DNA of 64,000 nt from Escherichia coli (GTDB taxonomy: Bacteria; Pseudomonadota; Gammaproteobacteria; Enterobacterales; Enterobacteriaceae), in assembly GCF_024298765.1 (NCBI RefSeq), contig NZ_CP101210.1; one strand, written 5' to 3'. Below, piece after piece: positions 9,650-48,180 of the stretch. The notes below the pieces were generated by a model, which was not told where the DNA came from, did not search any database, and saw only the letters and a list, made by a program, of their open reading frames with translations. Every line of letters begins with the position of its first letter. Positions within the stretch are counted from its first letter, which is position 1. A program made the translations under genes and the position numbers.

Positions 9650-10404
9650 ACCTTCTTTATCGCCTGCCGAATGACGCTGTTCAGCGATTCGATGGCTATC
9701 GTCGTGTCCGGGCTATTCTCAGACGGCAGTCTTAACGAAGGACTGCAGTTCGTGAATGCAAATCGCGTTTATCGAATAATGAGCGAGAATAACCTGTTGT
9801 TATTACATGACAAACCTTCACGACCGCAGAGGGAACATAAAGGCCCGAATATCGGTGAAGGAAAGCGACCCGCGCTGGTGTGCCGATGGCTTTGAGTTCG
9901 GTTGTGATGATGACGAAAAACTGCGTGTCACGTTCGCACTGGACTGTTGCGATCTTGAATCCATAGACTGGGCCGCAAGCACGGGAGGTTATGGCAAAGC
10001 AACGGTGCAGGATGTCATGTCAGGAGCGATAGAAAAACGCTTTGGCGATAGACCGGGATGGCCCATCCAGTGGCTGACCGATAACGGTTCGGCTTATACA
10101 ACTCATGAAACACGGCAGTTCGCCAGAGAGTTGAATCTGGAGCTCTGCACGACGGCAGTCAGTAGCCCTCAGAGTAATGGAATGAGAGAACGGTTCGTGA
10201 AAACGATGAAGAGCGATTACATCAGTATCATACCTAAACCGGACGGGTTAATGGCAGCAAAGAACCTTGCAGAGGCGTTCGAGCATTATAACGAATGGCA
10301 TCCGCATAGTGCACTGGGTTATCGCTCGCCACGGGAATATCTACGGCAGCGGGCCAGTAATGGGTTAAGTGATAACAGGTGTCTGGAAATATAGGGGCAA
10401 ATCC
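9650..10404 (+). mobile_element. IS2-like (IS3 family) element, 3' portion only; ends at IS2 right terminus GGGGCAAATCCA
   Basis: Encodes InsD-like C-terminal region; last ~150 bp identical to the IS2 fragment at 38287-38436. Confidence 0.7.
9671..10394 (+). pseudogene. insD: IS2-like transposase InsD (OrfB), 5'-truncated and frameshifted
   Basis: Frames 9671-9895 and 9807-10394 together give NANRVYRIM...WCADGFEF...WLTDNGSAY...[29 protein letters not shown]. Confidence 0.7.
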
Positions 10405-10650
10405 ATTTCGCAAGCAAAGACTCTGGTAAATACTCGTCATATTTATCCAGATCCTTATCAGGAACAACTGTAGCAGGCTCAAATTCTGAAGGTGCAAAAT
10501 GGCATCTGAATCGATCACGACTTGGCATGCTTCCGATCATTGATTGGCATCCTGCCAGTCGTATCGTAAGCGTAAACCGACCGCCGTATGTAGCCATTAG
10601 ACAAGAATTGGTAACTTAGACGCCCATCTGACACAGACGGACATCTAAGT

Positions 10651-34886: not shown

Positions 34887-36560
34887 ATGAATTCACCTGT
34901 CGCGGCATGTTCAGCGACCAGCGCCGGACAGAAATATCGCTTTTTCTCAATTATTATGAAAATTAATCTTCCGTTCATACACTGGTCACGGATTAGCAAT
35001 GATAAGCGCCTCGTGTTATCAGTGGTTGTCTTTACCCTTTCTAATCTCCTTGTATCCTCAGGAGCGCATCTGATTTACCGGATATTATTCTTTATCCTGG
35101 CACTTCTTATTATTAAGGCAATGAAATCGATTACGTTGCGTTTGATTCTTGCCTTCCCGTTCACATTACTGACTGCTGCAGATATCAGTATCAGCCTGTA
35201 TTCATGGTGTACATTTGGCACAACATTTAATGATGGTTTTGCAATCAGTATCCTTCAGACAGATCCTGATGAAGTAATAAGAATGTTCAGGATGTATGTT
35301 GTTTATGTTATCGCATTTATTATCCTCTTTTTATTGTTCTTCTGTTCAGCAATAAATAAAACGTCCTCATTGCCATCGGAAAAGGTCACGGTAATTACAT
35401 TTTTATTGTTAATTACAGTAACGTTATATTCTTCCTTCCAGTTTGCGTTGAAGAAACAGTATCAAATAAATGAAGTTGATCCTTACATAGTCGCTTCCCG
35501 GTTTGCCACATATACCCCTTTCTTTAATCTGAACTATTTTGCACTGGCCGCAAAGGAGCATCAGAGATTAATGACGATTGCTGATACCATACCTCACTAC
35601 GATCTGGTGATTACGGATAACAACACTGACGTATTTGTTCTGGTGATTGGTGAATCTGCAAGGACTGATAACATGTCCATTTACGGGTATTCGCGCCCTA
35701 CCACACCAGAGCTTCAGAAACAGAAATCACGACTGAAACTGTTCACTCAGGCAATCAGTGGCGCACCTTACACCGCGCTGGCTGTTCCACTGGCGTTATC
35801 TGCCGATAGTGTACTGCATCATGATATCCGTAATTACCCTGATAACATTATCAACATGGCGAATCAGGCGGGGTTCGATACCTGGTGGCTCAGTGCGCAG
35901 TCCGCTTTCCGACAGAACGGAACGGCTGTGGCCAGTATCGCCATGCGGGCCAGAAACAGAATTTATGTCAGAGGCTATGATGAGTTACTGCTCCCACACC
36001 TGGCTGAAGCACTGAACAGTAATCCGGGGAGCAGGAAACTGATTGTTCTGCATCTGACGGGCAGCCATGAACCGGTTTGCAGTAACTGGCCCAGAGATAA
36101 AGCCGTGTTTAAACCGCTGGATACAGAAGAAGTCTGTTACGATAATTCCATTCATTATACCGACAGTTTGTTGGGACAGGTTTTCACCATGCTGGAAACG
36201 CGTCAGGCATCCGTCATGTATTTTTCAGATCACGGTCTGGAGTATGACCCGACAAAAGAACATGCCTATTTTCATGGTGGAATAAAACCCAGTCAGCAGG
36301 CTTATCATGTTCCGATGTTTATCTGGTACAGCCCGGCACTGGGAGAGCATGTCGATCGCCAGACGGTGAACAGCGTTTTTTCCACTGCGTATAATGATTA
36401 TCTGATTAATGCATGGATGGGCGTAACCAGACCGGCTCAACCGAAAACGCCGGAGGAGGTGATTACCCGCTGGCAGGGGAAATCCGTGGTTTTTGATGCC
36501 AGTCATAACGTGTTTGATTACAAAGTATTACGAAAGAACTTTAATGAACTCCAGGAATAA
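34887..36560 (+). CDS. phosphoethanolamine transferase, sulfatase superfamily (YhbX/EptA-like)
   Basis: N-terminal TM helices plus motifs VLVIGESARTDNMSIYGY, HLTGSHEP, YFSDHGL; close to remembered E. coli YhbX; start may be Met at 34956. Confidence 0.75.
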   Translation: MNSPVAACSATSAGQKYRFFSIIMKINLPFIHWSRISNDKRLVLSVVVFTLSNLLVSSGAHLIYRILFFILALLIIKAMKSITLRLILAFPFTLLTAADISISLYSWCTFGTTFNDGFAISILQTDPDEVIRMFRMYVVYVIAFIILFLLFFCSAINKTSSLPSEKVTVITFLLLITVTLYSSFQFALKKQYQINEVDPYIVASRFATYTPFFNLNYFALAAKEHQRLMTIADTIPHYDLVITDNNTDVFVLVIGESARTDNMSIYGYSRPTTPELQKQKSRLKLFTQAISGAPYTALAVPLALSADSVLHHDIRNYPDNIINMANQAGFDTWWLSAQSAFRQNGTAVASIAMRARNRIYVRGYDELLLPHLAEALNSNPGSRKLIVLHLTGSHEPVCSNWPRDKAVFKPLDTEEVCYDNSIHYTDSLLGQVFTMLETRQASVMYFSDHGLEYDPTKEHAYFHGGIKPSQQAYHVPMFIWYSPALGEHVDRQTVNSVFSTAYNDYLINAWMGVTRPAQPKTPEEVITRWQGKSVVFDASHNVFDYKVLRKNFNELQE

Positions 36561-36703
36561 TTCGTTAAAGTAATTTACGACTCTATTCTTTTTTAAAGGA
36601 AACTTTCAGAAAATGCCCCCAGGGCGATAACCTGGGGAAGGGGGACTGTGTTATTACTGGTGGATAAATTATTACTTGTTTGAAAGATACACTAATGCAA
36701 TAT

Positions 36704-37723
36704 CTACTGATGCTGGATGCTTGAGTGTTTCATTCCTGCTGCTGAAAACGGCAATATCCAGGGCCAGACATATTCACCGTTAATATTTCTGCATTTCTGT
36801 ACAATTTCCTCAGAAAGTGTCTCATCAATTCTTTCCCGCAACAGCTTCTGCTGTCTTAAAATGCTTTCGCATATTTCGAAATCATCTTCCTGCATCAGCA
36901 TTTCGGCGCATTTAATGATTTCTGCTCGTTCATGCAGCACAGAGGAATGGTTATAGAGCCAGTTTACAAACAGCAATGCTTCCGGATATTGTCCCCATAA
37001 TGGTGAGTATGTTGCATAGTAATCTTCTGCCGTATCCAGAGAGCCGGAGAAGTTATGCCGCACAGCAAGTGGAAATGGATGCAAATTTCCGCACAGCATT
37101 TCCGCGATGTAAGTGTTTGTAGCAAAGCCATGACGAAAAGCTGTGGCAGCCTTAACATGTTCCCCATTCAGAAAATGCAGAAGACCAAGTTCATACCAGT
37201 AAGGTGAAAATTCATCAGCATGCTCTTTCAGTACACTGAAGGCTTGCTTATGATCGCCTGTTCGTAACAGTTCTGAGCCCAACAACCAGCGGGCACCCTG
37301 ATTATCTTCAGGATTGTATGCCAGTATTTTATCAGTGAGCATAACCGCATCCTGATGACGCTGTAAGTGCACATTTGCGAGAATTGTTGCATAAAGCGCG
37401 CGCAGATAAGGGCGGTTTTCGGGATGCATCCAGATGATTTCACCACTGAAACTTTCCGGGATGAGACGATTACCTGCCGCCAGTCCTTTAAGAGCGGCGT
37501 TCAGTGCCTTACGCGGGGCATTCTGCTCCAGAAATGCATATGCCAGATGAGCGTGTATATCAATAAAGTCAGGCTCCTGTTGAGCAAGGCGTCTGAGTTT
37601 GTTGATATAACCCGTCTCACTGATTTCATCAGTGTCGTATGCATCAAGCACTTCTTCAAACTCCCCCAGTAATGGGCCAAACCAGGTATCCGGAAATACG
37701 AAACGACCCTGGTTATTGTTCAC
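36704..37723 (-). CDS. TPR-like hypothetical protein, probably 5'-truncated by IS1 (listed start is GTG abutting the IS1 end)
   Basis: 339-aa ORF whose frame stays open into IS1 at 37733; helical-repeat-like sequence; no family recognised. Confidence 0.45.
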   Translation of the reverse strand: MNNNQGRFVFPDTWFGPLLGEFEEVLDAYDTDEISETGYINKLRRLAQQEPDFIDIHAHLAYAFLEQNAPRKALNAALKGLAAGNRLIPESFSGEIIWMHPENRPYLRALYATILANVHLQRHQDAVMLTDKILAYNPEDNQGARWLLGSELLRTGDHKQAFSVLKEHADEFSPYWYELGLLHFLNGEHVKAATAFRHGFATNTYIAEMLCGNLHPFPLAVRHNFSGSLDTAEDYYATYSPLWGQYPEALLFVNWLYNHSSVLHERAEIIKCAEMLMQEDDFEICESILRQQKLLRERIDETLSEEIVQKCRNINGEYVWPWILPFSAAGMKHSSIQHQ

Positions 37724-37787
37724 TTCAAAGCGGGTGATGCTGCCAACTTACTGATTTAGTGTATGATGGTGTTTTTGAGGTGCTCCA

Positions 37788-38063
37788 GTGGCTTCTGTTT
37801 CTATCAGCTGTCCCTCCTGTTCAGCTACTGACGGGGTGGTGCGTAACGGCAAAAGCACCGCCGGACATCAGCGCTATCTCTGCTCTCACTGCCGTAAAAC
37901 ATGGCAACTGCAGTTCACTTACACCGCTTCTCAACCCGGTACGCACCAGAAAATCATTGATATGGCCATGAATGGCGTTGGATGCCGGGCAACAGCCCGC
38001 ATTATGGGCGTTGGCCTCAACACGATTTTACGTCACTTAAAAAACTCAGGCCGCAGTCGGTAA
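37788..38063 (+). CDS. insA: IS1 protein InsA
   Basis: 91 aa [48 protein letters not shown]... Confidence 0.9.
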
Positions 38064-38425
38064 CCTCGCGCATACAGCCGGGCAGTGACGTCATCGTCTG
38101 CGCGGAAATGGACGAACAGTGGGGCTATGTCGGGGCTAAATCGCGCCAGTTCGCCCGGATGTTGGGACTTGAACCGAAGAACACGGCGGTGCGGAGTCCG
38201 GAGAGTAACGGCATAGCAGAGAGCTTCGTGAAAACGATAAAGCGTGATTACATCAGTATCATGCCCAAACCAGACGGGTTAACGGCAGCAAAGAACCTTG
38301 CAGAGGCGTTCGAGCATTATAACGAATGGCATCCGCATAGTGCACTGGGTTATCGCTCGCCACGGGAATATCTACGGCAGCGGGCCAGTAATGGGTTAAG
38401 TGATAACAGGTGTCTGGAAATATAG
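37982..38425 (+). pseudogene. chimeric ORF: IS1 InsB N-terminus (56 aa) fused in frame to IS2 InsD C-terminus
   Basis: [16 protein letters not shown]...GAKSRQ then [34 protein letters not shown]...NRCLEI; junction at CGCCAG 38143-38148. Confidence 0.75.
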
Positions 38426-39002
38426 GGGCAAATCCACTGCATGACAAAGTCATCGGGCATTATCTGAACATAAAACACTATCAATAAGTTGGAGTCATTA
38501 CCGACGAAGCGATAGCGATAATGACTGAAAGCGGAAAAATAAAAACAAATTGAATAATGTGTTTGGTAATGAATTTATCGGGGGGAATTGGGCATATCTA
38601 CCGCTTACGTCGAGCCGCTCACACCCGGTCAATGACCTGACAATCTCCCGGCAAGTCCCGACGTCGGGACTTGCGCCCCTGACACCGAAAAATAGCAGGA
38701 ACCCGCTCGCTACGGGTCCTCAGCTCAGTGCAAACCTGACTCAGCTCCTGCATTGCATCCCCGAAATTACCACACTCAGTACTTCATCACCTGCCACCAA
38801 TACCCGTGTCAGTCCTTCGTGACCTGACGCAATTACCCGACTCAGAGCTTCAGAGTCAGCCGCCGGTACCTGCCCGGTGCTCGCCCCTGCGCAACCAAGA
38901 TAAATCGACCATTGGCAGACTGCGATCATTCGTATGCATCGCTGATGACGCGCCCGAAAAACGCGTTAATGTAAGTGTGGAACAATACTTTGTTACTATG
39001 CA

Positions 39003-40397
39003 TCAAAAAAAGTATTTGAAACGTAATCGGGCACCGTAACGATCATCGGTAATGTCACAATTACTATATCTACAGTTACTATCCAGAATTGAGTAATAAG
39101 CCCCGAGGTAAATATTAAAGTTCTCCATATCCATCACATTAGCAAACTGATAAGATGCATGAATGGTGTGAATGTTGTATATTCCTTCACCATCAATCCA
39201 GCAACCATTATTACACACGACACCACTAAATTCATCAATCTTATTATGTGCGTAGATATAACCCAGTTCGAAACGTTTCCACAGAGCATTAATACTGGCA
39301 GTGAAATCTTTCTCATTACTGGCATCCAAATAGGCGGTATTAAGAGTAACCACGATGCCATTTTCCGGATCTGTTTTCAGACCGTTCCATGTCATGCTAA
39401 TACCATAACCGGAACGATTGGACTGATCGACAAAATTCCCCTTATTATCGGTATAGCCATAAGCATTTTTTACCACGTTCGCTTCCATCGCTGCGGAGAC
39501 TGTGAATTCTTCCGTTGGCGACCAGGCAATTACCGGGCGCAGATAAGCGACATTTTTCTGCTGCTCCATATATCGTCCATGATAATTACCGTTATTATAT
39601 AAAGATGTTCCGTCTTCAAGTAACGTGTTTAACTCAAAATACCAGTTATCGAGTTGTTTACTGATGAGGAAATTACCACCAGCGTCAGAACGACCGCGTC
39701 CCTCTTTCATCATATAGATATAACCACGGCCATCAGCATAAATATCATTAGCTGTATTACCGGAATACTCAATGAAAGTATCCTGATTTAGAGGGAACAT
39801 ATCGTAAGCTTCAAAACGACCGACTTTCACTTTCCACTCGTCATCTTTTCCAAAAAAGAATAATGCATCATCAATATTCACTGAACCGTGCATATCCGCC
39901 AGTGGTTGTGCTGAAAATCCAGCGAAATAACCATTATCAAGCTTACGGGTACCGTCAAAACCTAATAGAATACGGCCATTAAGGTCCCACCGTTCATTCA
40001 CTGACTCACTGTTCGCCCCGGAACTTATCATTACTAACTGACCGGGTTTACTGGCAGCATCTATATTAAACTCCACATCACCATAAAACTTCAAATCATT
40101 GTAACCAGAGAGCAGAAAACCTGGAGAAGATGTTTTTTCTTTTGTTGACTCAACTACTGCATAGCTGTTAGCATCTTTTTTATTCTGCTCTGAACTAATT
40201 TGACGTATTTCAGAATGTTGTTCTATATCAAAACTCTTTAACATTCTTTCTGCTTTTTCCGCCCTTTTTTCTGCAGCTTCCAGGCGTTCTTCCAGCAATG
40301 CCATTCTTTGTTCAAGCGTTAGCCCCCCTGTTTTTGCTGCACACGCATTGTATTCCAGTAATAAAAAAAGAGATAAACCCAAAAGTAACTTATTCAT
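39003..40397 (-). CDS. rafY: raffinose-inducible outer membrane glycoporin
   Basis: 464 aa with signal peptide, coiled-coil N-extension, C-terminal ...RFKYFF; last gene of raf operon. Confidence 0.8.
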   Translation of the reverse strand: MNKLLLGLSLFLLLEYNACAAKTGGLTLEQRMALLEERLEAAEKRAEKAERMLKSFDIEQHSEIRQISSEQNKKDANSYAVVESTKEKTSSPGFLLSGYNDLKFYGDVEFNIDAASKPGQLVMISSGANSESVNERWDLNGRILLGFDGTRKLDNGYFAGFSAQPLADMHGSVNIDDALFFFGKDDEWKVKVGRFEAYDMFPLNQDTFIEYSGNTANDIYADGRGYIYMMKEGRGRSDAGGNFLISKQLDNWYFELNTLLEDGTSLYNNGNYHGRYMEQQKNVAYLRPVIAWSPTEEFTVSAAMEANVVKNAYGYTDNKGNFVDQSNRSGYGISMTWNGLKTDPENGIVVTLNTAYLDASNEKDFTASINALWKRFELGYIYAHNKIDEFSGVVCNNGCWIDGEGIYNIHTIHASYQFANVMDMENFNIYLGAYYSILDSNCRYSNCDITDDRYGARLRFKYFF

Positions 40398-40591
40398 TTT
40401 ACCCCCTTAAATAAAAACAAATGTGGGTACTCTTATATTCTCTGTATCAACACAAAATACCATTCATATTCTTCACCAGACTGGTATATATAATCGCAAC
40501 ACATTACCAAAAGCACACAGCAAAGATAATTAATGTGTACTGGCAAAGTAATGACAGATAATGTCAGAAAAAATACTGATATCGATATGTC

Positions 40592-42022
40592 TCAGGTCAG
40601 CATCCATAAAGTGCCATCAGTTAATATCGCATCGCCATGAGCGGCATATAACGATAATTGTCTCGAGTCCGCTTGCGGATAAATACGACTTGATAAGGTT
40701 GCCTCACCATCGTTAACAAACACTTCAACAGATGAACGATCCAAGAAAATACGAAGAGTCAGATATTCTGTATCAGGAAGTTCAACACTGCGGTAACCAT
40801 CCAACCCTTCCTCAGGGTAATAGCGCCACAGTACCAGTCGCCCGGCCTGATTATCCACATAAAGTCGCAGACCGTCTCCAAGGCGGACGCCATAGTGCTC
40901 CGCATGACTGTCAACCGTATGCCACGTCACCAATAATTCTGCGGCCTGTACATTTTCGGTCAGTAATTGCAAACCCTGTAACCTTACAGGGGATAATGGC
41001 TGGCATTTTTTGCGCAGAGATTCGACTTCACGCACAGGTCGCTGGCACAGCCGGCCATCGCGCTCAAAAACCTCTCTGGGCAGCGTCAGACATCCTGCCC
41101 AGGCTTCACTGCGGGTGGGCACGGGTGAATCCCACATATTCATCCATGCCATAATGATACGCCTGCCGTCCTCAGCCAGCATGGACTGTGGAGCATAAAA
41201 GTCATGACCATAATCCAGCTCTTCAAATCCCCCTTTCAGCGCAAAGACAGAACCAGGCTTCCAGCTCCCTGCCAACACACCGCTCTGAAAAAGGTTACGG
41301 AACCGATAACCGGAAGGGGGCATCCCCTGTGGTGAGAACATCAGCCAGTGAAAATTACCACACCTGAAGAAATCGGGGCATTCCCACATATAACTTTTTC
41401 CGGCTGCGGAATGAGCAAGAACATGCTCCAGATGCCAGTCCCGCAAAGATGTCCCGCGATACAACAGAACTTGCCCATTGTCAGAAGCGTCCCGGGCACC
41501 AATGACCATCCACCAGGAGCCGTCTTCGTGCCAGACTTTGGGATCACGGAAATGCATTATACCTTCCGGAGGTGTCAGCACACAGCCCTGCTTCTCAAAG
41601 TGAATACCATCATGACTTGTAGCCAGACACTGTACTTCACGGATAATGCTGTCATTACCACGATCATCGAGACAAATATGACCAGTATAAATAAGTGATA
41701 GCACGCCATCATCATCCACGGCACTCCCTGAAAAACAGCCATCACGATCATATTTATCTCCGGGTGCCAGCGCGATAGGTTCGTGTTGCCAGTGCAACAT
41801 GTCGGTACTGGTGGCATGCCCCCAGTGCATTGGCCCCTGATATGCGCTTGCAGGATGATGCTGGAAGAACGCATGGTAACGCCCATTGAAGTAAATAAGG
41901 CCATTTGGATCATTCATCCAGCCGGCAGGTGGAGCCAGATGAAAAATCGGGTACCAGGCATTACCACGACGTGCGCAAAGTTTTTCAAGGGCAGACTGTG
42001 CCAAAGCAAGACGCTGTTTCAT
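40592..42022 (-). CDS. rafD: raffinose invertase / sucrose hydrolase (GH32)
   Basis: 476 aa; motifs HLAPPAGWMNDPNG, RDPKVW, MWECPD. Confidence 0.85.
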   Translation of the reverse strand: MKQRLALAQSALEKLCARRGNAWYPIFHLAPPAGWMNDPNGLIYFNGRYHAFFQHHPASAYQGPMHWGHATSTDMLHWQHEPIALAPGDKYDRDGCFSGSAVDDDGVLSLIYTGHICLDDRGNDSIIREVQCLATSHDGIHFEKQGCVLTPPEGIMHFRDPKVWHEDGSWWMVIGARDASDNGQVLLYRGTSLRDWHLEHVLAHSAAGKSYMWECPDFFRCGNFHWLMFSPQGMPPSGYRFRNLFQSGVLAGSWKPGSVFALKGGFEELDYGHDFYAPQSMLAEDGRRIIMAWMNMWDSPVPTRSEAWAGCLTLPREVFERDGRLCQRPVREVESLRKKCQPLSPVRLQGLQLLTENVQAAELLVTWHTVDSHAEHYGVRLGDGLRLYVDNQAGRLVLWRYYPEEGLDGYRSVELPDTEYLTLRIFLDRSSVEVFVNDGEATLSSRIYPQADSRQLSLYAAHGDAILTDGTLWMLT

Positions 42023-43299
42023 CAGTTAATCTCCGAATGCGCTGCAGGGGCTTTTTCTACAGAAGGGTGTACGCTCCCGCGGGAAGAACTCAGCGTGAAA
42101 ACTGATATCACGGTAACAGTCAGAGCAATCATCCCGAGCACAAAATACGTATTCTGGAATCCCATACGATCATACAGGTGGCCGGCAAAGGTAGAGAGAA
42201 GTATTGCAGCAAGTTGTTTGGAAAACTGAAAACCTATTAAATAAACGGTCGCTGACAGTCGGGTGTCAAACACTGCCGTAATATATTTGAACGCCCCAAC
42301 CAGCAAAAATGGAACTTCAAGAGCGTGAAGCATTTTCAGAATCACCACTTCTGTCGCGGTGGTGGCAAAAGCAGAACCGGTAATGCGGATGGTCATAATT
42401 CCCCCCGCAACAAGCAGGGTATTTTTGGCACCAATGCGATGAATTATCCATGGTGTACAGAACATGATAATGGCATTACAAATCTCCCCCGCAGTGGTAG
42501 CAAATCCGAATGCTTTTATTCCTGCCTGAGGAGTGTCAAAGAATGAACGAAAAAATGTGGCAAACTGCTGATCAAATACATCATAGACACAGGCCACACC
42601 AATCGTGTAGAGAACAAACATCCACATCTGACGCATGCGAAACAGGCTGAAGACCATTCTGGTCGAAATCAGGGAAGAATTGGCACCCAGTGTATTCATA
42701 ACCATTGCCGTCTGGCTGGTACTGGGGCGCGCCAGAAACAACAGAAGAAGCAACAATAATGCGCTTCCTGACCCCATCCAGAAAACCAGAGAAGGATCGA
42801 CATTAAAAAGCATTCCAGCCATAGCCGCACATAACGCCCAGCCCAGACACCCGAACATCCTCGCTTTACCGTATTCAAATCCACGACTGCGACTGACCCG
42901 CTCTATATAAGCTTCAATAGCTCCGGCACCTGCAGAAAACACAAAACCAATAAAGACACCGCCAGTCAGTGCGCCTGCCCAGATATTGAAGCGCAGCAGG
43001 GGCGCAAATACATATAAAAAAAAGGGGGCGAAAAATACAAGTAACAGGCTGATACTCCAGATCAGGTTTTTTTTCAGTCCCAGGCGATCTGATATGACCC
43101 CAAGCAATGGCTGGAAACTGATGGCAAACAGAGAAAGACATGAAAAGACTATACCTGTATCCGTTTTACTCAGTCCGACCACATCGGACAGCCATACAGG
43201 CAAAAACGGAAAACAGGTTGCCATGATGAAAAAGTAGAGAAAGAAGAACAGACCGAAAATCCAGAAATCGGGATTTTTATGCGTACTTGCAGAATTCAT
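42022..43299 (-). CDS. rafB: raffinose permease (LacY-family MFS symporter)
   Basis: Start at MNSASTHKNPDFWIFGLFFFLYFF (GAGGG RBS); LacY-like throughout. Confidence 0.85.
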   Translation of the reverse strand: MNSASTHKNPDFWIFGLFFFLYFFIMATCFPFLPVWLSDVVGLSKTDTGIVFSCLSLFAISFQPLLGVISDRLGLKKNLIWSISLLLVFFAPFFLYVFAPLLRFNIWAGALTGGVFIGFVFSAGAGAIEAYIERVSRSRGFEYGKARMFGCLGWALCAAMAGMLFNVDPSLVFWMGSGSALLLLLLLFLARPSTSQTAMVMNTLGANSSLISTRMVFSLFRMRQMWMFVLYTIGVACVYDVFDQQFATFFRSFFDTPQAGIKAFGFATTAGEICNAIIMFCTPWIIHRIGAKNTLLVAGGIMTIRITGSAFATTATEVVILKMLHALEVPFLLVGAFKYITAVFDTRLSATVYLIGFQFSKQLAAILLSTFAGHLYDRMGFQNTYFVLGMIALTVTVISVFTLSSSRGSVHPSVEKAPAAHSEIN

Positions 43300-43361
43300 T
43301 ATTCTTACCCTCACGGGATAATATTGAGAAACAGGACGGAGCTGAGGCTCCGTACCTCTCT

Positions 43362-45488
43362 TCACACAGCTCTTTCAAGTGCTATCAAAATCGCACTCTC
43401 CGGATCCAGTACGGGGAGCTGAATCCCTCCCTGTGCCAGCCATTCACCACTGGCCTCAAGGCTCTGATTCATCCAGACAGGTAATTTGCGCATGGTATGA
43501 CCGCCTTCACCAACCACCTGGAGGTCCGGGTGATCAATAACCCGAAGCCGGTAACGCACTTCCGCCGCCAGACCGGGAAAACGAAGTATGCCTGGTAAGG
43601 TGTAATCCGGCATTGCAAGCTGGCTGATCATAAAAAGTGCCTGAGACTGATCAGGGCTGACGACTCCCTGAACCTGTATCGAAGGATCTGGCATATCCAC
43701 ACGCCAGAGAACTCCTGTATGAATCAGTTGTCGCCATTCTTTATAGAGCAAGGCATACCGGCGATAACCGTCAGATTCCTTCGCATCTGCGGCCACCGGA
43801 TCCAGCTCCAGCCCCATATGGCCGAACAATGCCGTCAGCCCACGAAAAGCGATGCTGTGCTGCCGGAAAGTTGCATGGCAGCGGCGATGGCCAATATGCG
43901 CCCCCATCACCTCAGGAGGGAAAAAGTAACTCATGCCACGTTGTATGGTGCAGCGCTCCAGGGCATCATTATTGTCAGATGCCCAGAACCGGTGTGTGCG
44001 TTTCAGGACTTCGAAGTCAATACGCCCCCCACCGGAAGCACAGGACTCAAACTCAACATGTGGAAAACGTTCACGGAGGAGATCAAGCAATCGATAGAAC
44101 TGACGGGTCTGTGCATCTGCTGCCGCACGGCCTTCATGCCCTGCCTGTACAAGCTCACGATTCATGTCCCATTTCACATAATCAACCGGATGTTCTCCCA
44201 GTAACCATAAGAAACGTTCATAAATGTAAGCAAAGGCCTCTGGAATATTCAGGTTAAGAACATACTGATATCTTCCGGTTGGCTGGGAATATCCAGGCAT
44301 TGACAATACCCAGTCAGGATGAAGACGAAACAGGTCAGAATCCGGGTTAATCATTTCCGGCTCAACCCATATGCCAAATTCCATACCGAGAGATTTCACA
44401 TGTTTAATAACCGGCATCAGCCCGTTCGGGTATTTCTGTTCATCGGTATACCAGTCGCCCAGAGCCGCGCGGTCATCGTTACGTCCTTTAAACCAGCCAT
44501 CATCAATAATGAAACGTTCAACGCCCAGTGCTGCTGCACGCTCAGCCATCTGCATGATGTAATCAGGATTGTGATTGAAATAAATACCTTCCCAGGTATT
44601 GAGATGTACAGGGCGGGGTTTTTGCTCAGGGAAACGGATAATTTCATCACGCAAAAAACGATGGTATTGCTGACTCATTCCATTCAGGCCATCCGCAGAG
44701 TGGCAGGCATATAGCCACGGGGTGTACAGGGTTTCATTCTTCCTGAGAGCCTTCTCACCCGGCATCCACAGAGCCTCAGCCTGAACGTAACGCCTGCCGT
44801 CAGTTTTTGCCTCACATCTCATGCGGTGATTTCCACTCCACCCCAGATGCACAGCCCACACCTCTCCCTGTTGTTCCGAGAAGCCTGGCGTGCCGACAAT
44901 CAGCGCCGGAAAATGCTCATGAGATGTCCGCCCTCTGCGATTTTCCAGAACAAAAGCATCATGAGTGAGACGTACCCTGTGCGGCTGAAATTCACGAGTC
45001 CAGCGTCCGTGAAAAGCCATGACTTCTTCCGCACGTTCCGCTAAAGGTAAAGTGATGGCGAAACGATTTATCTGCCAGTCCCCCTCTCTGAGGTTGGTCA
45101 GTGCATGACGAACTTTCAGAATTCCTGATGGCGTCATCACCAGCTCGCTGACCAGACGCAGGCCGGCTACCGAATCTTCACTGGTAAGTCTCAGAGTGTT
45201 TTCGGTATGTTCCACGTCAACTGTATAAAAAACAGGAGATGCATCCAGCCCATTCCTGTGTCCTTCCAGTCCCGGAGAGCTAAAAAGTCCCAGGGCATTT
45301 TCAGCCATCAGTGTTAGTGGCGTATCAATATCCAGACGACCATTCGCAACCGGTCTTTCCAGGCTGGCACAGTCATCCGGTGAGAAATGTTTCAGTGCAG
45401 AGCCCCACCAGATAATTTCTGCATGTGGACGGGTTTTAATAATTAAATCAGAGCGAGGACTGCTCAGTCTGCAGTACTTTGAAACCAT
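43362..45488 (-). CDS. rafA: alpha-galactosidase (GH36)
   Basis: 708-aa ORF with GH36-like catalytic region (KWDMN, CASGGGR). Confidence 0.85.
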   Translation of the reverse strand: MVSKYCRLSSPRSDLIIKTRPHAEIIWWGSALKHFSPDDCASLERPVANGRLDIDTPLTLMAENALGLFSSPGLEGHRNGLDASPVFYTVDVEHTENTLRLTSEDSVAGLRLVSELVMTPSGILKVRHALTNLREGDWQINRFAITLPLAERAEEVMAFHGRWTREFQPHRVRLTHDAFVLENRRGRTSHEHFPALIVGTPGFSEQQGEVWAVHLGWSGNHRMRCEAKTDGRRYVQAEALWMPGEKALRKNETLYTPWLYACHSADGLNGMSQQYHRFLRDEIIRFPEQKPRPVHLNTWEGIYFNHNPDYIMQMAERAAALGVERFIIDDGWFKGRNDDRAALGDWYTDEQKYPNGLMPVIKHVKSLGMEFGIWVEPEMINPDSDLFRLHPDWVLSMPGYSQPTGRYQYVLNLNIPEAFAYIYERFLWLLGEHPVDYVKWDMNRELVQAGHEGRAAADAQTRQFYRLLDLLRERFPHVEFESCASGGGRIDFEVLKRTHRFWASDNNDALERCTIQRGMSYFFPPEVMGAHIGHRRCHATFRQHSIAFRGLTALFGHMGLELDPVAADAKESDGYRRYALLYKEWRQLIHTGVLWRVDMPDPSIQVQGVVSPDQSQALFMISQLAMPDYTLPGILRFPGLAAEVRYRLRVIDHPDLQVVGEGGHTMRKLPVWMNQSLEASGEWLAQGGIQLPVLDPESAILIALERAV

Positions 45489-45526
45489 AAGACATTCTCC
45501 TTTCTCAGGGATGCCTTACTGTTGAT

Positions 45527-45561
45527 CCGAAACGTTTCGGGTATCAACCAAAACGTTTCGG
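45527..45561 (-). promoter_or_regulatory. putative RafR operator pair (two LacI-type palindromes) in rafA promoter
   Basis: CCGAAACGTTTCGG (45527-45540, perfect) and CCAAAACGTTTCGG (45548-45561) between rafR stop and rafA start. Confidence 0.55.
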
Positions 45562-45583
45562 ATATGTGAGCTGGATAAAAAAA

Positions 45584-46594
45584 TCAGGAGCAAGGAGGAT
45601 GAATCGTCTTTCCCGGATAAAATACCGGGTTCCAGACAACCTGTAGTGGTTTTGATGATGAATCAGTAATTATCTGATATATCATCTCGGAAATCTGGCG
45701 ACCAACGAGGCTTCGTGTTGACTGAATAACTGCAGCCACATCCAGCTCAATAATACTGTCCTGTGGCAAACCATCATATACAACCAGAGATACCGCATCT
45801 TTTCCTGAAAGACGACCGCTCAACTGCAGTGCCATGGCAGCACCATCTCCACTCAGGTCATTGTCAGTAATAATAGCTGTTGGTGGTATCGGTAGTGACA
45901 TTAACTCCATCACGGCCTGATATCCTGCTCGCCGTGTGGGAGAAACCAGCCGCAGCCATGTATCTTCCAGTTCATGCTCATTCAGTGCATCAAGCCATCC
46001 CTGACGTCTTGCAACAACATAGCTATGTGAAGTGTCTTCACTCAACAATGCAATACGTTTATGTCCCAAAGCAATCAGTTTCTGGGTTGCCTGTCCAGTC
46101 CCGGCATGATTATCAAAGTCAAACCACGCACAGGGCAGACCAGATGGTACCCGACCAAGAGCCAGAAATGGAATACCTGCTTTATGAAGGTGTGTGATAC
46201 GGGGATCGTCATCCAGAGTGTGTGCAATGATGAGAGCATCAACCCTGCGACTTTCAACAAGCCGCATATAGCTGTGGCAATCGGCATGCTCATCATCAGC
46301 TATCAGTAGTAAGTCAATATCATGGTGAGCAAGTTCCCGGCTGATGCAACTGACCATATCCATAAAAACACCACTGTTAAATGGCACATCACGTCCAGGA
46401 TAAACCAGACCGACAGCATCGGTTTTACCGGTTTTGAGTCTTCTTGCCTGAGTATTAGGACGGTAACCGCGTCGACGAGCTTCAGCTTCCACCCGTGCAC
46501 GGGTGGAAGCTGACACATCTGCATAGCCTCCAAGAGCCCGACTGACAGTGGTGACAGAAACTCCGAGTGCAGTGGCAATCGCCTTAAGTGACAT
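45584..46594 (-). CDS. rafR: LacI-family raffinose operon repressor
   Basis: 336 aa; HTH MSLKAIATALGVSVTTVSRAL. Confidence 0.8.
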   Translation of the reverse strand: MSLKAIATALGVSVTTVSRALGGYADVSASTRARVEAEARRRGYRPNTQARRLKTGKTDAVGLVYPGRDVPFNSGVFMDMVSCISRELAHHDIDLLLIADDEHADCHSYMRLVESRRVDALIIAHTLDDDPRITHLHKAGIPFLALGRVPSGLPCAWFDFDNHAGTGQATQKLIALGHKRIALLSEDTSHSYVVARRQGWLDALNEHELEDTWLRLVSPTRRAGYQAVMELMSLPIPPTAIITDNDLSGDGAAMALQLSGRLSGKDAVSLVVYDGLPQDSIIELDVAAVIQSTRSLVGRQISEMIYQIITDSSSKPLQVVWNPVFYPGKTIHPPCS

Positions 46595-46743
46595 ATTATC
46601 TCCTGCTAATTATTATAGTAGACCGTCCCCCTAAATCTCCAGACAACCAATATCACTTATTGTAAGTTAACGGAATCCCTCTGATCTGTAAGATCAGAGG
46701 GAAAGGTTATTGATTGTGAGAATAATTTCAGGACAAAGTGTAA

Positions 46744-47928
46744 TTAACTCTCCTGGATGGAAAGTGAATCAATGTAGTCAGCGTACCATTGCATCATTTC
46801 ACGGCGACCATCGAGATACAGGGCATGATTATAGGTACCCCTGATGGAATTTTTATCCACATGAGCTAACTGCATTTCAATCCAGGCAGAATTAAAGCCC
46901 TGTTCGTGCAGAATGGTACTCATGGTGTGACGAAAACCATGACCGGTTGCCCTGCCATCGTAACCGATACGTTTGAGCACCATATTGATGCTGGCTTCGC
47001 TCATTGGCTTGTTGATATCACAACGTCCCGGGAAAACCAGCCGGTATTGTCCGGAGAAAGTTTTGAGCTGCAGCAGAATGTCAGTGGCCTGTCGTGACAG
47101 TGGTACGACATGTTTACGTCGCATTTTCATGCGGCTTTCAGGGATTGTCCACAGGGCATTATCAAAATCAATTTCTGACCATTCAGCGGACCGTAGTTCA
47201 ATCGTTCTGAGGCCTGTCAGAAGCAGCAGATTTGTCGCCATGCGGGTAACAGGACTGCCATGATATTCAGCGAGCTTCCGGAGAAAAACAGGGAGCTCAT
47301 CTGCTCTCAGGTGGGGGAAATGTGCAGCTTTTGGCGCCGCCAGCGTACTGGTCAGTTCAGATGCCGGATTGACAGTGGCTCGTCCGGTGGCGATGGCATA
47401 ACGAAAAATCTGATTACAGTATTGACGCACCTTACGAAGTTTTTCCAGCGAGCCACGTTTTTCTATGCGGCGCAGAATTTCCAGCATTTCCAGCGGGAGG
47501 ATATCAGTAACGCTTCGTTTGCCCAGATACGGGAAAATATCTTTATCCAGAGCCTCCAGTACGCTTCTGGCGTAACTTTCAGACCATGACAAAGATTTAT
47601 GCTGATGCCATTCCGTAGCAAGGGCATGGAACGTATTGGTGGCAGAGATTTTCTGAGTGAGTTTTTCCTTTCGCTTCTTTTCGCCCGGGTCGCCACCTTC
47701 GGAGATAATTTTTCGGGCATCGTCGCGTTTGATTCTGGCTTCAGCAAGGGAGACGTCGGGATAGACGCCGAGGGCCAGTTTTTTCTCTTTTCCTGCTATC
47801 CGGTATTTAAGCCGCCAGTAGCGGGCACCCGTGGTTTTTACCAGCAGATATAAACCACGTTCGTCAGAGAGTTTATAGTCTTTTTCTTTAGGTCTGGCTG
47901 TTTCGACCTGTCTGGCTGTAAGTGCCAT
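46744..47928 (-). CDS. int: P4-type tyrosine integrase
   Basis: Start MALTARQVETARPKEKDYKLSDERGLYLLV (AGGAG RBS); C-terminal catalytic region HGFRHT...Y; adjacent to tRNA-Phe. Confidence 0.85.
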   Translation of the reverse strand: MALTARQVETARPKEKDYKLSDERGLYLLVKTTGARYWRLKYRIAGKEKKLALGVYPDVSLAEARIKRDDARKIISEGGDPGEKKRKEKLTQKISATNTFHALATEWHQHKSLSWSESYARSVLEALDKDIFPYLGKRSVTDILPLEMLEILRRIEKRGSLEKLRKVRQYCNQIFRYAIATGRATVNPASELTSTLAAPKAAHFPHLRADELPVFLRKLAEYHGSPVTRMATNLLLLTGLRTIELRSAEWSEIDFDNALWTIPESRMKMRRKHVVPLSRQATDILLQLKTFSGQYRLVFPGRCDINKPMSEASINMVLKRIGYDGRATGHGFRHTMSTILHEQGFNSAWIEMQLAHVDKNSIRGTYNHALYLDGRREMMQWYADYIDSLSIQES

Positions 47929-48104: not shown

Positions 48105-48180
48105 TGGTGCCCGGACTCGGAATCGAACCAAGGACACGGGGATTTTCAATCCCCTGCTCTACCGACTGAGCTATCCGGGC
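48105..48180 (-). tRNA. pheV: tRNA-Phe (anticodon GAA)
   Basis: Reverse complement reads GCCCGGATAGCTCAGTCGGTAGAGCAGGGGATTGAAAATCCCCGTGTCCTTGGTTCGATTCCGAGTCCGGGCACCA; pheV rather than pheU inferred from neighbouring yqgA-speC. Confidence 0.95.

Follow-up and report, generated by a model that had tools for sequence, protein, structure and literature searches.

IS1 typically generates a 9-bp target-site duplication and makes its InsAB' transposase by -1 frameshifting. IS2, a member of the IS3 family, is complete when it has both terminal repeats together with orfA and orfB, about 1331 bp in all. At the module borders of tRNA-linked islands, nested IS elements, truncated IS ends, and microhomology deletions are commonplace. 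Plasmid-borne raffinose (raf) operons of the pRSD2 type occur on IncF plasmids such as pIP1206. Here we analyzed a 770-bp IS1/IS2 chimera in a 64,000-nucleotide stretch of Escherichia coli DNA (contig NZ_CP101210.1; the whole stretch is called the window below). Compared with IS1, the chimera retains both 23-bp terminal inverted repeats, insA, and the A6C motif, but it lacks the 9-bp duplication as well as nt 418 to 702; because these comprise most of insB, no InsAB' transposase is possible. From IS2 it has the last 287 to 293 nt with the right inverted repeat; identity is 96% to K-12 IS2A and 100% to an IS2 variant of which other E. coli carry complete copies. The left inverted repeat, orfA, the N-terminal part of orfB, and the catalytic core are absent. 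It is neither a functional IS1 nor a complete IS2, and it does not have the features of a mobilized non-autonomous derivative. With IS-bounded deletion scars in tRNA-linked islands it shares the IS-in-IS arrangement, truncated ends, mismatched flanks, and position at a module border. Nothing of substance sets it apart from these scars; its joint, IS1 nt 417/IS2 nt 1045, is lineage-specific.

To resolve its composition, the window was compared by BLAST with K-12 IS1A (NC_000913 19796-20563) and IS2A (381260-382590). Two segments matched IS1A perfectly, and window positions 38133 to 38436 between them were 96.1% identical to IS2A nt 1025 to 1331 (Table 1). The middle segment aligned to IS2 at 96 to 100% and not to IS1, which rules out a contiguous natural IS1 variant. 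In a four-way alignment, the window tracked IS1 through ...GGGGCTAAATCGCGCCAG and thereafter IS2 (TTCGCCCGGATG...), the joint being spelled TAAATCGCGCCAG followed directly by TTCGCCCGGATG. The three matches upheld the preliminary description, made from the letters alone, in that CGCCAG joins the IS1 left part to the IS2 3' end, the middle is IS2, and the IS1 right end resumes at 38437; its coordinates for the 6-bp microhomology (38143 to 38148) lay one base too far to the left. At its right end, IS2 is preserved through the final base (38436), directly followed by IS1 nt 703. Including the microhomology, the IS2 part (38144 to 38436, 293 nt) matched the complete IS2 of strain FXCREC004 (L027) without a single mismatch, and it is a natural IS2 variant, not the K-12 IS2A form. 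Identity at the joint is perfect and shared by both elements, and the joint is internal to both with no transposon end involved, as in a microhomology deletion. When all 767,225 distinct IS1 x IS2 junctions were enumerated, only 0.03% had a microhomology of at least 6 bp (P = 0.0003), and CGCCAG is for this reason more than chance.

Table 1. Features of the chimera and its surroundings, in window coordinates
Feature	Position	Strand	Evidence or remark
TPR-repeat gene remnant, codons 6-347 + stop	36704-37732	-	ORF list, homologue alignment, ETEC1716 empty-site allele
Left flank TTCAAAGCG, 9 bp abutting IS1 left end	37724-37732		Sequence
IS1 nt 1-417	37733-38149	+	100% to IS1A, gap-free (BLAST); includes first part of insB'
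IS1 left inverted repeat	37733-37755	+	Identical to IS1A
Intact insA	37788-38063	+	InsA identical to K-12 InsA
147-aa in-frame fusion ORF, InsB' N-terminal part + IS2 OrfB C-terminal part	37982-38425	+	ORF list
A6C frameshift motif	38039-38045	+	
CGCCAG microhomology, deletion joint	38144-38149	+	IS1 nt 412-417 = IS2 nt 1039-1044
IS2 nt 1045-1331 (final 287 nt): orfB 3' end + complete right inverted repeat ending ...GGGGCAAATCCA	38150-38436	+	
IS1 nt 703-768 stub	38437-38502	+	100% to IS1A (BLAST)
IS1 right inverted repeat	38480-38502	+	Identical to IS1A
Right flank GACGAAGCG, start of BRO-N gene 3' end	38503-38511		Sequence
Last 16 codons + stop of BRO-N-domain gene	38503-38553	+	Intact 792-nt gene in EC974 ends here
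raf block: rafY porin, rafD invertase (GH32), rafB permease, rafA alpha-galactosidase, rafR LacI-type repressor	39003-46594	-	RefSeq annotation of identical region in SM107, ORF list
IS2 left inverted repeat remnant, 41 bp	46619-46659	+	38/41 identical to IS2A nt 1-41 (BLAST)
Tyrosine integrase gene	46744-47928	-	Annotation
tRNA-Phe (pheV)	48105-48180	-	ARAGORN, annotation; attachment end of the island, neighbors yqgA and speC

The chimera encodes no complete IS1 or IS2 transposase, although insA is intact. The product of the fusion ORF gave Pfam matches to both DDE_Tnp_IS1 and rve_3, and RefSeq labels the ORF an incomplete integrase-core pseudogene; in the RefSeq annotation the region reads "TPR protein," "IS1-like element transposase," and "integrase core domain-containing protein (incomplete)."

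Region 36500 to 38800 was present in 175 of 5,426 complete E. coli genomes (at least 80% coverage), many of them 100% identical. More genomes were recovered with queries for the TPR-IS1 junction (215), the IS2/IS1-right junction (257), and 500 nt of the right flank (289), and between hundreds and thousands of assembly blocks hold records of this exact fusion ORF and of the 344-aa TPR product. The one point in favor of an assembly artefact is the general prior that repeats are frequently misassembled; because the identical 2.3-kb stretch recurs in many independent complete E. coli chromosomes, with the same structure in at least 175 of them, we assign a negligible probability to an artefact or a contiguous IS1 variant. 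The chimera is a fixed, widespread structure. The arrangement was the same in 49 of the 50 contigs read (26 + 24). The exception, locus L015, shares the chimera and the right flank in identical form and differs in its left flank, without a duplication; other genomes have this left-flank sequence in inverted orientation, a few tens of kilobases away. This shows that an IS1-associated inversion exchanged the left flank of L015, and that the 417-bp IS1 part takes part in later recombination.

On the left, the chimera abuts the remnant of the TPR-repeat gene. The 339-codon ORF given in the preliminary description (36704 to 37723, minus strand) does exist, its first canonical start being GTG at 37723 (339 aa), and beyond it the frame stays open for 8 further codons, RFE from the TPR gene and VGSIT from the IS1 left inverted repeat, followed by TAA. 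A protein search returned full-length homologues of 346 to 347 aa in E. coli and Shigella and of 337 to 340 aa in more distant genera, with Morganella and Pseudomonas among the genera that have intact copies. Residues 6 to 347 of the window gene align at 88 to 94% to the E. coli homologues, whereas the family N-terminus MNDRL and the ATG are absent. The closest uninterrupted allele, in strain ETEC1716 (L008; 96.8% DNA identity), reads ...CACTTCAAAGCG followed by TAATCTGTCGTTCAT at this site, i.e., M-N-D-R-L-R-F-E-V. IS1 thus abuts TPR codon 6, and what is missing is 15 coding nucleotides (codons 1 to 5, MNDRL) and, along with them, the start codon and the native upstream sequence. The suspected loss of the 5' part was therefore correct for these sequences, but there was no substantial loss: an intact homologue of equal length would speak against a truncation, and lengths of 346 to 347 aa against 339 codons come near to that.

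The TPR gene is probably silent, its start codon and native upstream region being gone. In a consensus scan no outward promoter for it was found, the matches being the known insA promoter and one that spans a junction; the number of promoter-like matches in the region was not above the shuffled expectation. The junction-spanning match, TTGTCA-17 nt-TATATT (10/12; 38419 to 38447, minus strand), straddles the border of the IS1 stub and the IS2 right end and points into the IS2 fragment. RefSeq protein WP_032153697.1 (344 aa; 36704 to 37738, minus strand) has its annotated start at an ATC within the left inverted repeat of IS1, and caution is warranted with this annotation: the 344-aa "TPR protein" is the product of a truncated gene, not the natural full-length one. 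In strain VTB97585v (L009, 3031 to 6710), the truncated gene is further split by an IS21-family element (ISSso4-like), and such continued IS accumulation is consistent with a dispensable gene.

On the right, the chimera adjoins a BRO-N-domain gene of which the 3' end is left; in EC974 this gene is intact and directly upstream of rafY. The preliminary description had missed this, and with it the position of the chimera as the left border of the raf block. The left flank TTCAAAGCG was identical in 9 of 10 related loci examined. It agrees with the right flank GACGAAGCG at 6 of 9 positions, which are the last five, as previously noted, and also position 3. There is no target-site duplication of the IS1 kind, the two flanks belonging to two unrelated genes (TPR and BRO-N), and both IS1 terminal repeats are intact, which bears out the earlier statement that this is not a simple insertion. 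A reading of the shared AAGCG as a degenerate duplication was rejected: besides the origin of the flanks in unrelated genes, both IS1 parts match the reference at 100% and are hence too recent for substitutions at 3 of 9 positions. From the sequences, the partial similarity is best taken as coincidence.

Comparison with ETEC1716 revealed what has been exchanged at this site. There, the order is PEA transferase gene, TPR gene, 417 bp, integrase gene, tRNA-Phe (pheV), yqgA, and speC; homology to the window ends at 37732 and restarts at 46712. The 417 bp are replaced in the window by 8,979 bp consisting of the chimera, the BRO-N 3' end, rafY-D-B-A-R, and the IS2 remnant, and the chimera sits exactly at the border of two island modules, TPR/PEA-transferase and raf. 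Such an exchange, 417 bp missing and ~9 kb gained, differs from the 770-bp insertion that would be expected if the element were a MITE-like non-autonomous IS1 derivative, mobilized in trans by other IS1 copies and inserted here. The two intact 23-bp terminal repeats and a length close to the 768 bp of IS1 would suit such a derivative; yet it left no target-site duplication (6/9 match), and the right flank was the same in the 26 + 24 contigs read and in all listed genome matches, with no second site bearing a duplication. We consider it highly improbable. The 770-bp element is best explained as an inert scar and not as a transposable unit that had landed at this site.

On its right, the raf block is bounded by the 41-bp IS2 remnant, located between the start of rafR and the stop of the integrase gene. 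The block is thus bracketed by direct IS2 sequences (38150 to 38436 and 46619 to 46659), resembling a composite structure that has decayed. A terminator-like hairpin with a T-run (38699 to 38719, minus strand) lies ~280 bp downstream of rafY and would halt raf read-through before the IS scar and the TPR gene. Elsewhere in the window (9700 to 10405), a 5'-truncated IS3-family orfB fragment is only ~65% identical to IS2 up to ~10190 and then, over the final ~215 bp with the right inverted repeat, 98 to 100% identical to the IS2 variant; this mosaic IS end suggests that IS2 and a related IS3-family element have exchanged sequence by recombination or conversion.

A closely similar segment occurs on the IncF plasmid pIP1206 (L010), which carries rafR-A-B-D-Y, the IS2 left remnant, and ~760 bp of the integrase gene at 98.5% identity (window 38810 to 47503, L010 4537 to 13212), the integrase part being cut off by IS2. 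Instead of the chimera, its raf segment is bordered on the left by a complete IS1 of opposite orientation, at a different position. Among the matches listed from the plasmid collection, none covered at least 80% of window 38100 to 39000 and thus the chimera; the listed matches were three-piece matches of separate IS copies. Separately, 148 plasmids covered at least 80% of window 46300 to 46760, which runs from the rafR 5' end across the IS2 remnant to the terminal part of the integrase gene. Judging from the sequence comparison, the plasmid and island raf segments appear to share an origin, with transfer possible in either direction.

To look for forms from which the chimera could have arisen, we used a synthetic query of IS2 nt 745 to 1044 joined to window 38150 to 38652. 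It matched in one piece at 100% coverage in 18 complete genomes, of which five were inspected. All five loci had a complete 1331-bp IS2 followed by IS1 nt 703 to 768, GACGAAGCG, BRO-N', and raf, and the IS2 3' 293 nt differed from the window by 0 to 5 mismatches. The three that extend far enough (L028 to L030) run on into the integrase gene, and L028 and L029, compared with the window over the whole length of the two loci, are 99.9% identical to positions 38133 to 47652. To the left of the complete IS2, three contexts were seen among the loci inspected, with IS1 sequence abutting in none; in one context a same-orientation IS1 is located ~950 bp to the left, the geometry that a single deletion needs. 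Strain EC17CM2 (NZ_CP190349.1) carries the raf block twice, once with the chimera beside the TPR gene (~0.36 Mb) and once in the complete-IS2 form elsewhere (L029, 3.885 to 3.904 Mb), next to an integrase gene and possibly at the other tRNA-Phe gene.

Three further junctions were searched for. A simple IS1 insertion in the TPR gene would read GGAGTCATTACC, TTCAAAGCG, and TAATCTGTCGTTCAT in succession, but this junction of the IS1 right end, TTCAAAGCG, and the TPR 5' part was found in 0 of 5,426 genomes and in 0 metagenome contigs. The 5' part of BRO-N abutting the IS1 left end would read ACAGACTATCGACGAAGCG followed by GGTGATGCTGCC; for this BRO-N 5', GACGAAGCG, IS1-left junction, there were only two-piece pseudo-hits among the genomes and 0 metagenome contigs. 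The one pseudo-hit inspected, H243, was an unrelated IS1 adjoining a BRO-N-like fragment. The left junction of a nested IS1::IS2, IS1 nt 707 joined to IS2 nt 1, would read GGTGGAGCTGCA followed by TAGACTGGCCCC, and no one-piece match to it occurred among the matches listed for the 5,426 genomes, the best ones being two-piece matches of neighboring IS copies. Literature searches turned up nothing specific on a raf/pheV island or on the chimera.

Because the complete right end of IS2 abuts IS1 nt 703, an insertion of IS2 into an IS1 at nt 703 to 707 must have happened. Because 18 genomes have a complete IS2 together with the IS1 nt 703-768 stub and the raf block, we judged the two IS1 ends of the chimera to derive from two copies. 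On balance we lean toward a history in which one microhomology-mediated deletion joined the TPR-gene IS1 to the raf-border IS2. First, an IS1 would have inserted into the BRO-N gene beside rafY, and an IS2 would have inserted into this IS1 at nt 703 to 707. Rearrangements at the IS2 end would have removed the left part of the BRO-N IS1, giving the form with complete IS2, IS1 nt 703 to 768, BRO-N', and raf that is still extant. A second IS1 would have inserted in the same orientation at TPR codon 5/6, further left in the island. Finally, a single RecA-independent deletion, by slippage or illegitimate recombination at CGCCAG, would have joined IS1 nt 417 to IS2 nt 1045, removing all sequence between these points. 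IS1 nt 703 to 768 would then probably be what is left of another, older IS1 copy that IS2 had entered. With two IS1 copies, the flanks could not match, and as the chimera and the mismatch of its flanks are made in one step, this history is the most economical and in our view the best reading. "IS1 middle replaced by IS2," as the preliminary description put it, accordingly holds as a statement of composition but probably not of history, the IS1 ends most likely being from two copies. The junction counts (215, 257, and 289 genomes) fit a derived, widespread form. Against a single deletion, the direct precursor, a complete TPR-gene IS1 with a duplication of TTCAAAGCG to the left of a complete-IS2 raf block, was not found.

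Two further observations against it, the 100% identity of both IS1 pieces to IS1A, compatible with a single copy too, and the finished chimera with a left flank exchanged by IS1-associated inversion in L015, are what a history with one IS1 would draw on, in addition to the IS2 insertion at nt 703 to 707. IS2 would have entered the BRO-N IS1, an internal deletion from IS1 nt 418 to IS2 nt 1044 would have produced the chimera, and the left flank would have been exchanged later, through homologous recombination between the 417-bp IS1 part and a TPR-gene IS1, or else through an adjacent deletion that transposase supplied in trans drove at the IS1 left end. This involves one event more than the single deletion. 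Moreover, neither the nested IS1(1-707)-IS2 junction, searched for in genomes, nor the BRO-N-5'/IS1-left junction, searched for in genomes and metagenome contigs, was found, and every complete-IS2 form that was found is without the IS1 left part. By either route of flank exchange, we regard one IS1 as possible but doubtful.

Whatever the order of events, the chimera is a known kind of feature, an ordinary dead IS1/IS2 remnant that is real and explained. There is a slim chance that the scar is not wholly inert, either through an InsA-InsB'-OrfB' hybrid made by frameshifting or through TPR expression driven from the IS1 left end. If so, the hybrid might inhibit IS1 transposition in trans in many carrier lineages, and transcription and a start might come from the IS1 left end, yielding a TPR protein with an altered N-terminus. 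A recent genome-wide association study reported rafY as associated with chicken E. coli (PMC12987596), and the annotated products of other chicken-associated genes in that study match genes in the pheV island or its variants (PMC12987596). The chimera is a useful lineage marker for a common variant of the pheV island with the raffinose operon, and it illustrates how island modules are stitched together by nested IS elements and microhomology deletions.
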